Shown here in pieces: positions 7,942-8,413 of a DNA stretch of 8,879 nucleotides (positions are counted from its first letter, which is position 1; each line of letters opens with the position of its first letter). The DNA comes from Escherichia coli (GTDB lineage Bacteria > Pseudomonadota > Gammaproteobacteria > Enterobacterales > Enterobacteriaceae). Position numbers and translations under genes: made by a program. Where the stretch lies: assembly GCF_003334785.1 (NCBI RefSeq), contig NZ_QOWV01000035.1. One strand, 5' to 3'. The notes beneath the pieces were generated by a model. That model had not been told where the DNA came from. It saw only the letters and a list, made by a program, of their open reading frames with translations, and did no database searches.

Positions 7942-8413
7942 CCGGACTCTGAAAGATTACCAATACTCATCGTCCATCCGCTTGCTTTAGGCTGACAGGT
8001 TCATAATCAACGCAAACCAGAGCTGTACAGGCTTGGGCGCGGCTTTCAAACCAGTCGTGATCACGGCAATCAATTTTGAACTCTGCTTAACGGACATTTC
8101 TGTATAACCCTTACGGCAACGAAAAACGCGAAGTTAAAATTTTAGAAACCCAAAAACGTGACATGACTAAGTTTAGATTTCAGGGGGGGAGATCAAAAAA
8201 TTTCGCTCTGTGCCAGAGCGGACATTCACGGAGCTGGTTCATTACCAATGAGGTTGGGCTTTTGAGGATAAATCAATGATCAGACGCCAACGTAAATCAA
8301 AAGCAACCCTGGAACGGAATTGCTAATCCAGTTTCTGACCATCGATTTTTCTAAAAAGTGTGCGTTTGCTACTACTTAGGTAGGTGCAGCTTTCTTAATC
8401 ACCGGCAGCCACG

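Follow-up and report, generated by a model that had tools for sequence, protein, structure and literature searches.

A weak terminator-like hairpin and a length-polymorphic G-run in the decayed DNA between fecE and the yjhV remnant of the Escherichia coli fec island

Rho-independent (intrinsic) terminators of Escherichia coli are characterized by a GC-rich stem-loop of about 5 to 14 bp with a short loop, by a U-tract close to the stem, by transcript 3' ends that map to this U-tract and by conservation together with the gene that they serve. A second class of simple sequence features is represented by the contingency loci of Neisseria, Haemophilus and Campylobacter, in which poly-G/C tracts lie within a coding frame or a promoter, differ in length among isolates and have lengths that are scrambled even in close relatives. 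A third point of reference is the debris of the KpLE2 region, or fec island, of K-12, which includes yjhV and fragments of IS911B, IS30D and IS600. The locus described here lies in that island and combines a short hairpin, an A-run and a G-run. It is probably best read as a patchwork of decayed DNA with a weak terminator-like hairpin, either a relic or a product of chance, and with a G-run that is neutral and inherited by clade.

The window, that is, the whole stretch of E. coli DNA that was analysed, comprises 8,879 nucleotides. It carries fecI, fecR, fecA, fecB, fecC, fecD and fecE on the plus strand (311-7856), as annotated by RefSeq in MG1655 and in identical or near-identical E. coli loci. 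The host island is the horizontally spread E. coli fec island, which corresponds to the KpLE2 region in K-12 and has a diversity of about 0.3%. The spacer between fecE and yjhV is present in about half of the complete E. coli genomes (2,726 of 5,426), at 2,762 chromosomal as against 12 plasmid places and with no more than three copies per genome; in plasmids from other genera, fecE is not followed by it. Papers that mention yjhV contain nothing on the fecE-yjhV spacer. The hairpin and the runs lie 348 nt beyond the stop of fecE and 193 nt beyond that of yjhV, and their surroundings, from fecE to the IS-truncated yjhV, are a patchwork of decayed DNA (Table 1).

Table 1. Features of the fecE-yjhV region, in window positions
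Feature	Position	Strand	Remarks
fecE	7089..7856	+	closes the ferric citrate transport operon and converges on yjhV; from RefSeq entries for identical loci
Spacer, fecE to yjhV	7857-8413		557 bp; unannotated
ISKpn21-like (ISNCY) transposase fragment	8006..8077 (region to 8088)	-	24 aa, residues 148-171; blastn and tblastn
Single-copy segment carrying G-run, A-run and hairpin	8089..8229	.	not homologous to the native locus in Raoultella
G7 (C7 on the minus strand)	8183..8189	.	length-polymorphic in E. coli; exact-match counts
Tail AAATTTTTT	8195..8203	-	A6 and TTT on the plus strand; three A's between stem and U-run
Hairpin, candidate weak intrinsic terminator	8204..8220	-	7 perfect pairs, 5 of them G-C; loop of 3; listed by the terminator scan
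Raoultella-homologous segment	8230..8745	-	85% nt identity; blastn 8745->8230 against L008 5416-5934, and alignment; yjhV remnant and 184 nt of 3' flank
yjhV pseudogene (b4286)	8414..8743	-	annotated 'pseudogene' in MG1655; abuts IS911B-1
IS3-family (IS911/ISEc52-like) element end	8746..8879	-	annotations; transposase gene points toward yjhV and the hairpin

The original prediction had noted a G7 run (8183-8189), an A6 run (8195-8200) and a perfect 7-bp hairpin (8204-8220), and these coordinates are exact. On the plus strand, GGGGGGG is followed by AGATC (8190-8194), AAAAAA and TTT (8201-8203), after which come the two hairpin arms, CGCTCTG (8204-8210) and CAGAGCG (8214-8220), separated by TGC. 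The minus strand reads CGCTCTGGCACAGAGCG AAATTTTTTG ATCT CCCCCCC, the hairpin being followed there by AAAUUUUUU (AAATTTTTTGATCT, then C7). The stem has an energy of -9.1 kcal/mol, equal on both strands, and the hairpin is kept when 91 nt or 251 nt of minus-strand context are folded, in the MFE as well as in the centroid structure. Compared with dinucleotide shuffles, the 91-nt region folds no better on either strand (z of -0.48 and -0.62), while the z of -1.79 obtained for the 251-nt yjhV 3' region is due mainly to other helices. A permissive Rfam search of positions 7600-8879 gave only noise; the best hits, with E-values of 0.37 to 9.4, scored far below the gathering thresholds and all belonged to eukaryotic or archaeal families.

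How much of this could be due to chance depends on what is counted. Perfect hairpins of at least 7 bp are not unusual, with 8 in the window where dinucleotide shuffling gives 4.3 +/- 2.5. When the perfect hairpin must also be GC-rich and have six T or more within the next 10 nt, the window contains a single case, the one described here, where 0.083 would be expected; such a GC-rich hairpin with a T-rich tail turns up at least once in 6.7% of the shuffled windows. The rarity of the hairpin-plus-tail combination, seen in a post hoc test, is suggestive; at the same time, the motif may be pure chance because it has those same odds of arising somewhere in a window of this size. A rival account, namely that the hairpin and the runs are inert and their terminator-like look coincidental, differs from the preferred reading solely in whether some termination occurs, and a GC-rich stem followed by a 9-nt stretch of A and U only is physically expected to cause some pausing or termination, which argues against complete inertness. 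In its favor are the hairpin counts, the fold z of about -0.5, the Rfam result and the lack of a mapped 3' end in the tables of Adams et al. 2021. Taken together, we give pure coincidence an appreciable but clearly minor chance of being the right account.

A looser terminator scan of the whole window returned 15 sites versus 9.2 +/- 3.3 expected, in which the hairpin ranked second and a canonical-looking hairpin between fecA and fecB ranked first. The latter, at 4203-4218 on the plus strand, consists of GCCCGGCTTGCCGGGC followed by TTTT and is probably an attenuator that lowers the expression of fecBCDE relative to fecA. Two further weak terminator-like hairpins are found in the yjhV 3' flank, at 8361-8388 on the plus strand and at 8302-8324 on the minus strand. 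The second of these is 90 nt past the yjhV stop, within the Raoultella-homologous segment, and its stem is not conserved there.

The gene ahead of the hairpin on its strand is yjhV, a pseudogene that has been truncated and is now fused with the end of an IS. What is left of it are the C-terminal 109 codons (44%) of a 248-aa NAD(P)-binding protein, the 5' side having been cut by the IS911/IS3 element. The remnant has 80% amino acid identity to residues 141-248 of Pantoea WP_109651334 (tblastn), and in identical or near-identical E. coli RefSeq loci it is annotated as a short CDS, either 'hypothetical' or 'NAD(P)-binding domain'. A protein search with the YjhV fragment gave mostly E. coli fragments; the native loci were found by a contig-level search for encoding loci. 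In the closest of them, from Raoultella terrigena (L008), the similarity stops abruptly at window position 8230, 184 nt past the yjhV stop and 9 nt short of the hairpin, and the hairpin, the T-run and the C-run have no counterpart. The R. terrigena gene is chromosomal, is itself split by a frameshift and lies between HxlR-type regulator genes. This looks like the sort of locus from which the yjhV piece was captured.

These comparisons bear directly on the idea that the hairpin originally served the NAD(P)-binding gene as its genuine Rho-independent terminator and was carried along when this gene, now represented by yjhV, was captured beside fec. The hairpin is on the yjhV strand, is the top-ranked minus-strand terminator-like motif past the stop at 193 nt downstream, and is found in every fec-yjhV locus examined, which speaks in favor of the idea. 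We nevertheless hold this origin to be improbable, as the R. terrigena locus, the closest intact native locus found, lacks the whole motif in spite of a flank that is 85% identical up to the breakpoint, as in three more distant native loci (L006, L013 and L014, that is, Pantoea and two metagenome contigs) the similarity ends at the stop codon, and as both the AAA spacer and the stem energy are poor terminator features.

On the fecE side, the spacer holds a fragment of an ISKpn21-like transposase gene, stranded 150 nt downstream of fecE and unannotated in MG1655. The fragment reads KIDCRDHDWFESRAQACTALVCVD, with 17 of 24 residues identical (E 8e-7, tblastn), and its position within the transposase gene was taken from locus L007. 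At the DNA level, the match to ISKpn21 is about 80% identical; by blastn, 1,285 plasmid records match at 80-90% identity, and more than 1,200 of the ISKpn21-matching plasmids are in Klebsiella, Enterobacter and Citrobacter.

Between this fragment and the homology breakpoint lies the segment with the G-run, the A-run and the hairpin, which occurs at a median of one place per E. coli genome and at three at most. By sensitive blastn, it had no diverged paralogues in E. coli genomes, no match among phages or among plasmids other than those of E. coli, and no copy outside the fec island among E. coli genomes, plasmids and phages. It does not behave as a member of the REP/BIME or MITE-end families, since dispersed copies were not found. 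When species-representative genomes were scanned for an exact 26-mer, there were 0 matches; this set is evidently without fec-island E. coli, because the type strain ATCC 11775 (NZ_CP033092.2) has the sequence, and the absence seems to be weaker evidence than it appears. The 26-mer is also present in 64 metagenome contigs, with the same fecE...yjhV context in 64/64, and the hairpin segment is always found in this context (about 2,730 E. coli genomes in addition to the 64 contigs). Position 8229, the last base ahead of the breakpoint, is a C/T SNP. As a by-product of the analysis, the fecE-yjhV spacer emerges as a mosaic made of the ISKpn21-like fragment, an orphan segment of 150 nt and a piece of a captured NAD(P)-binding gene locus.

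Whether the hairpin terminates transcription can be considered feature by feature. The original prediction had proposed a weak terminator for the minus-strand reading frame upstream. Its geometry, strand and distance from the yjhV stop, as well as the weakness of the stem, hold up; what speaks against the proposal is that yjhV is an IS-truncated pseudogene, that Raoultella is without the hairpin and that the curated table of 3' ends has no entry. The GC-rich stem and short loop are within the range of intrinsic terminators, at its weak end. The U-tract is not proximal, the tail being AAAUUUUUUG with A at the three positions next to the stem. An approximated TransTermHP tail score is -2.29, and it would be -5.2 if the T-run abutted the stem; the default cut-off of the program is -2.5 or lower. 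The hairpin is not conserved with the gene, as shown by the Raoultella flank. It does come after yjhV and after the IS transposase gene, which runs in the same direction, and its GC-rich stem is followed by a 9-nt tail of A and U only.

The MG1655 equivalents of the hairpin and of the T-run are 4510327-4510343 and 4510347-4510352 on the plus strand. The original prediction had suggested looking for 3' ends near position 8200, and none is reported at MG1655 4510340-4510369 in the curated K-12 Term-seq tables of Adams et al. 2021 (PMC7815308, supplementary file 1, four tables), from which entries for fecE and yjhV are absent altogether. This absence is weak negative evidence, as local expression may be too low in those conditions. 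In one RNA-processing dataset, the only site is inside fecE. On the other hand, genomic SELEX in K-12 has placed an RpoD promoter that faces yjhV in the interval from insM to yjhV (PMC3946193), which makes some transcription toward the hairpin plausible in this strain. All in all, the hairpin is possibly a weak and leaky terminator at best, and both its candidate activity and the direction of transcription on which it would act are what we infer; the data themselves establish the anatomy, the pseudogene setting, the breakpoint in homology and the G-run polymorphism with its distribution by clade.

The hairpin might instead serve the plus strand, as a 3' stem-loop that stabilizes fec read-through mRNA after factor-dependent termination and shields fecE from 3' exonucleases. 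No convincing plus-strand intrinsic terminator follows fecE, the only candidate being a 5-bp stem at 8054-8067, and the hairpin would be just as stable in plus-strand RNA. This role is very unlikely in our estimation. The plus strand is without a U-run after the hairpin, which lies far beyond the fecE stop and across the IS fragment; the tables of Adams et al. 2021 list neither a 3' end nor Rho-termination for fecE; and the spacer is missing after fecE in the plasmids of other genera, so it is not integral to the fec operon. A natural variant points the same way: in OkiPb01713 (L080), G8218A in the right arm leaves a G-U pair in minus-strand RNA and breaks a pair in plus-strand RNA, although as a single case it carries little weight. 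The right junction of this locus also differs, with homology ending at 8413 and a hemagglutinin-repeat pseudogene in place of yjhV.

The G-run is a separate matter. No other homopolymer of the window is as long as G7, and only five others reach six. The original prediction had singled it out as a potential site of slipped-strand mispairing, to be checked by comparing isolates, and its length does vary among them. Exact-match queries of 79-82 nt that differed in tract length alone were counted in about 2,728 E. coli complete-genome records carrying the region, giving G5 in 4, G6 in 1558, G7 in 1065 and G8 in 10. About 91 remaining records have substitutions instead; all three of those sampled have C->T at 8229, and among them PI12 has an interrupted tract (GAGGGG) and OkiPb01713 the change at 8218 described above. 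K-12 MG1655 has G6, while E24377A and the type strain ATCC 11775 have G7. Among 73 hairpin-containing loci, of which 64 are the metagenome contigs, G7 was found in 41, G6 in 30 and G8 in 1, and A6 is unchanged throughout with the sole exception of the error-prone L010.

The polymorphism is not a long-read artefact, because short-read metagenome assemblies show both major alleles. Certain individual calls are probably long-read errors. In particular, the G4/T5 of L010 was rejected as evidence, since this assembly has 28 gaps over the aligned stretch 3393-8744 and looks like a case of long-read homopolymer error. The assemblies of L010, L011, L012 and L018 have 16 to 50 gaps relative to the window (16 to 31 in the first three), mostly in homopolymers; they look like unpolished long-read assemblies and are unfit for tract-length calls.

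The inheritance of the tract was followed on a neighbour-joining tree of 38 loci, built from window positions 4900-8740 with the tract left out. Tract length requires 3 Fitch parsimony changes on this tree versus 12.9 +/- 1.6 (minimum 7) with shuffled labels. G6 and G7 each form large clades, with the exceptions of L025, an apparent recombinant, and of the pair L003 (G6) and L063 (G7), whose informative haplotypes are identical in spite of the different tract length. A G5 tract is found in CV601gfp, a K-12-serotype strain. A total of 101 of the remaining 3,829 sites segregate and account for 116 changes, and just three sites require three changes or more. This places the tract among the most mutable positions, but it is far from hypervariable. 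Indels in the fecE-yjhV spacer of the 38 loci are confined to homopolymers, and the only other indel site in the aligned loci is the A5 run at 8152-8156, which is A4 in 2 of 38, including CU42ET-1.

There is also little for the tract to control. No listed record, the curated MG1655 annotation included, has an annotated gene under the G-run, no promoter-like site near it passed the scan at 9/12 matches or more, and no intact gene lies downstream in either direction. By eye, weak hexamer pairs flank the run on both strands, TTTAGA-18-AAAAAT (+) and TTGATC-15-TAAACT (-), each with 8/12 matches. The run is also inside a mechanical 38-aa ORF (8163-8279), which no Shine-Dalgarno sequence precedes and whose frame is shifted in G6, the majority allele. 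A different small frame in the vicinity, the 16-codon ORF MIRRQRKSKATLERNC (8276-8326, plus strand, antisense in the yjhV 3' flank), has a GAGGA Shine-Dalgarno 7 nt upstream and is probably no gene, with a 1-nt insertion frameshift in Raoultella.

The possibility that the G-run is a contingency tract, whose length would switch a promoter or a small ORF at high frequency, has to be weighed against these data. It would account for the range from G5 to G8 among isolates and for the isolated changes in otherwise identical haplotypes (L003/L063, CV601gfp), and the mechanical ORF and the spacers of the hexamer pairs would provide targets. It is hard to reconcile with the tree, on which about 13 changes would be seen with scrambled lengths and two alleles are stably inherited, with hexamer pairs that fall under the threshold and an ORF that no listed record annotates, and with the lack of an intact gene downstream either way. 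Some of the lengths may be long-read errors (L010 to L012), and tracts of six or seven G are shorter than typical phase-variation switching tracts. Phase variation is thus highly unlikely here. Slippage, as originally proposed, stands as far as the variation in length is concerned, and is set against a clade-structured distribution and the absence of an annotated gene or scan-passing promoter. The G-run is a mutable homopolymer and at most a hypothetical phase-variation switch. It is an even more far-fetched idea that the length of the run (G6/G7/G8) tunes a cryptic promoter through the spacers of the weak sigma-70-like hexamers, the minus-strand one giving an antisense RNA into the fecE 3' end and ferric citrate uptake then differing heritably between G6 and G7 clades.

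We return to the patchwork of decayed DNA, which would work as follows. The 7-bp GC-rich hairpin with AAAUUUUUU would be the relic of a gene lost by rearrangement, or else a chance product. Its effect would at most be to stop some of the minus-strand transcripts that read through from the IS3-family transposase gene and the yjhV remnant and would otherwise run antisense into fecE. The G-run would be a neutral homopolymer in which replication slippage occasionally adds or drops one G; the G6 and G7 alleles would have grown common and been inherited by clade, with no annotated gene under control of the run. As a whole, the feature is ordinary debris, in which a weak terminator may lie, together with a homopolymer polymorphism that follows the clades. 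Should the hairpin prove active, it would count as one more weak terminator without annotation and would curb the antisense transcription that enters the fec iron-uptake genes from an IS element. The G6/G7 run can serve as a clade marker of the fec island, and long-read assemblies are likely to miscall its length.

Set against the described systems, the hairpin resembles E. coli Rho-independent terminators, such as the one between fecA and fecB, in its GC-rich perfect stem, short loop and downstream T-run, and in being sited after a convergent reading frame. It differs from them in the AAA between stem and T-run, in a stem of only 7 bp and -9.1 kcal/mol, in having a pseudogene as its upstream 'gene', in the lack of a 3' end in Adams et al. 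2021 and in its absence from the native Raoultella flank. The G-run is like the contingency loci of Neisseria, Haemophilus and Campylobacter in being a poly-G/C tract whose length differs among isolates by single-nucleotide steps, whereas it has no annotated ORF or scan-passing promoter, is inherited by clade with few changes and is short, at 6-7 nt. With respect to the KpLE2 debris of K-12, the hairpin-bearing segment of 150 nt differs in that the searched collections contain no known IS, gene or repeat that matches it; like that debris, it lies between an annotated pseudogene and IS remnants, with a homology breakpoint on one side and the ISKpn21-like transposase fragment on the other.
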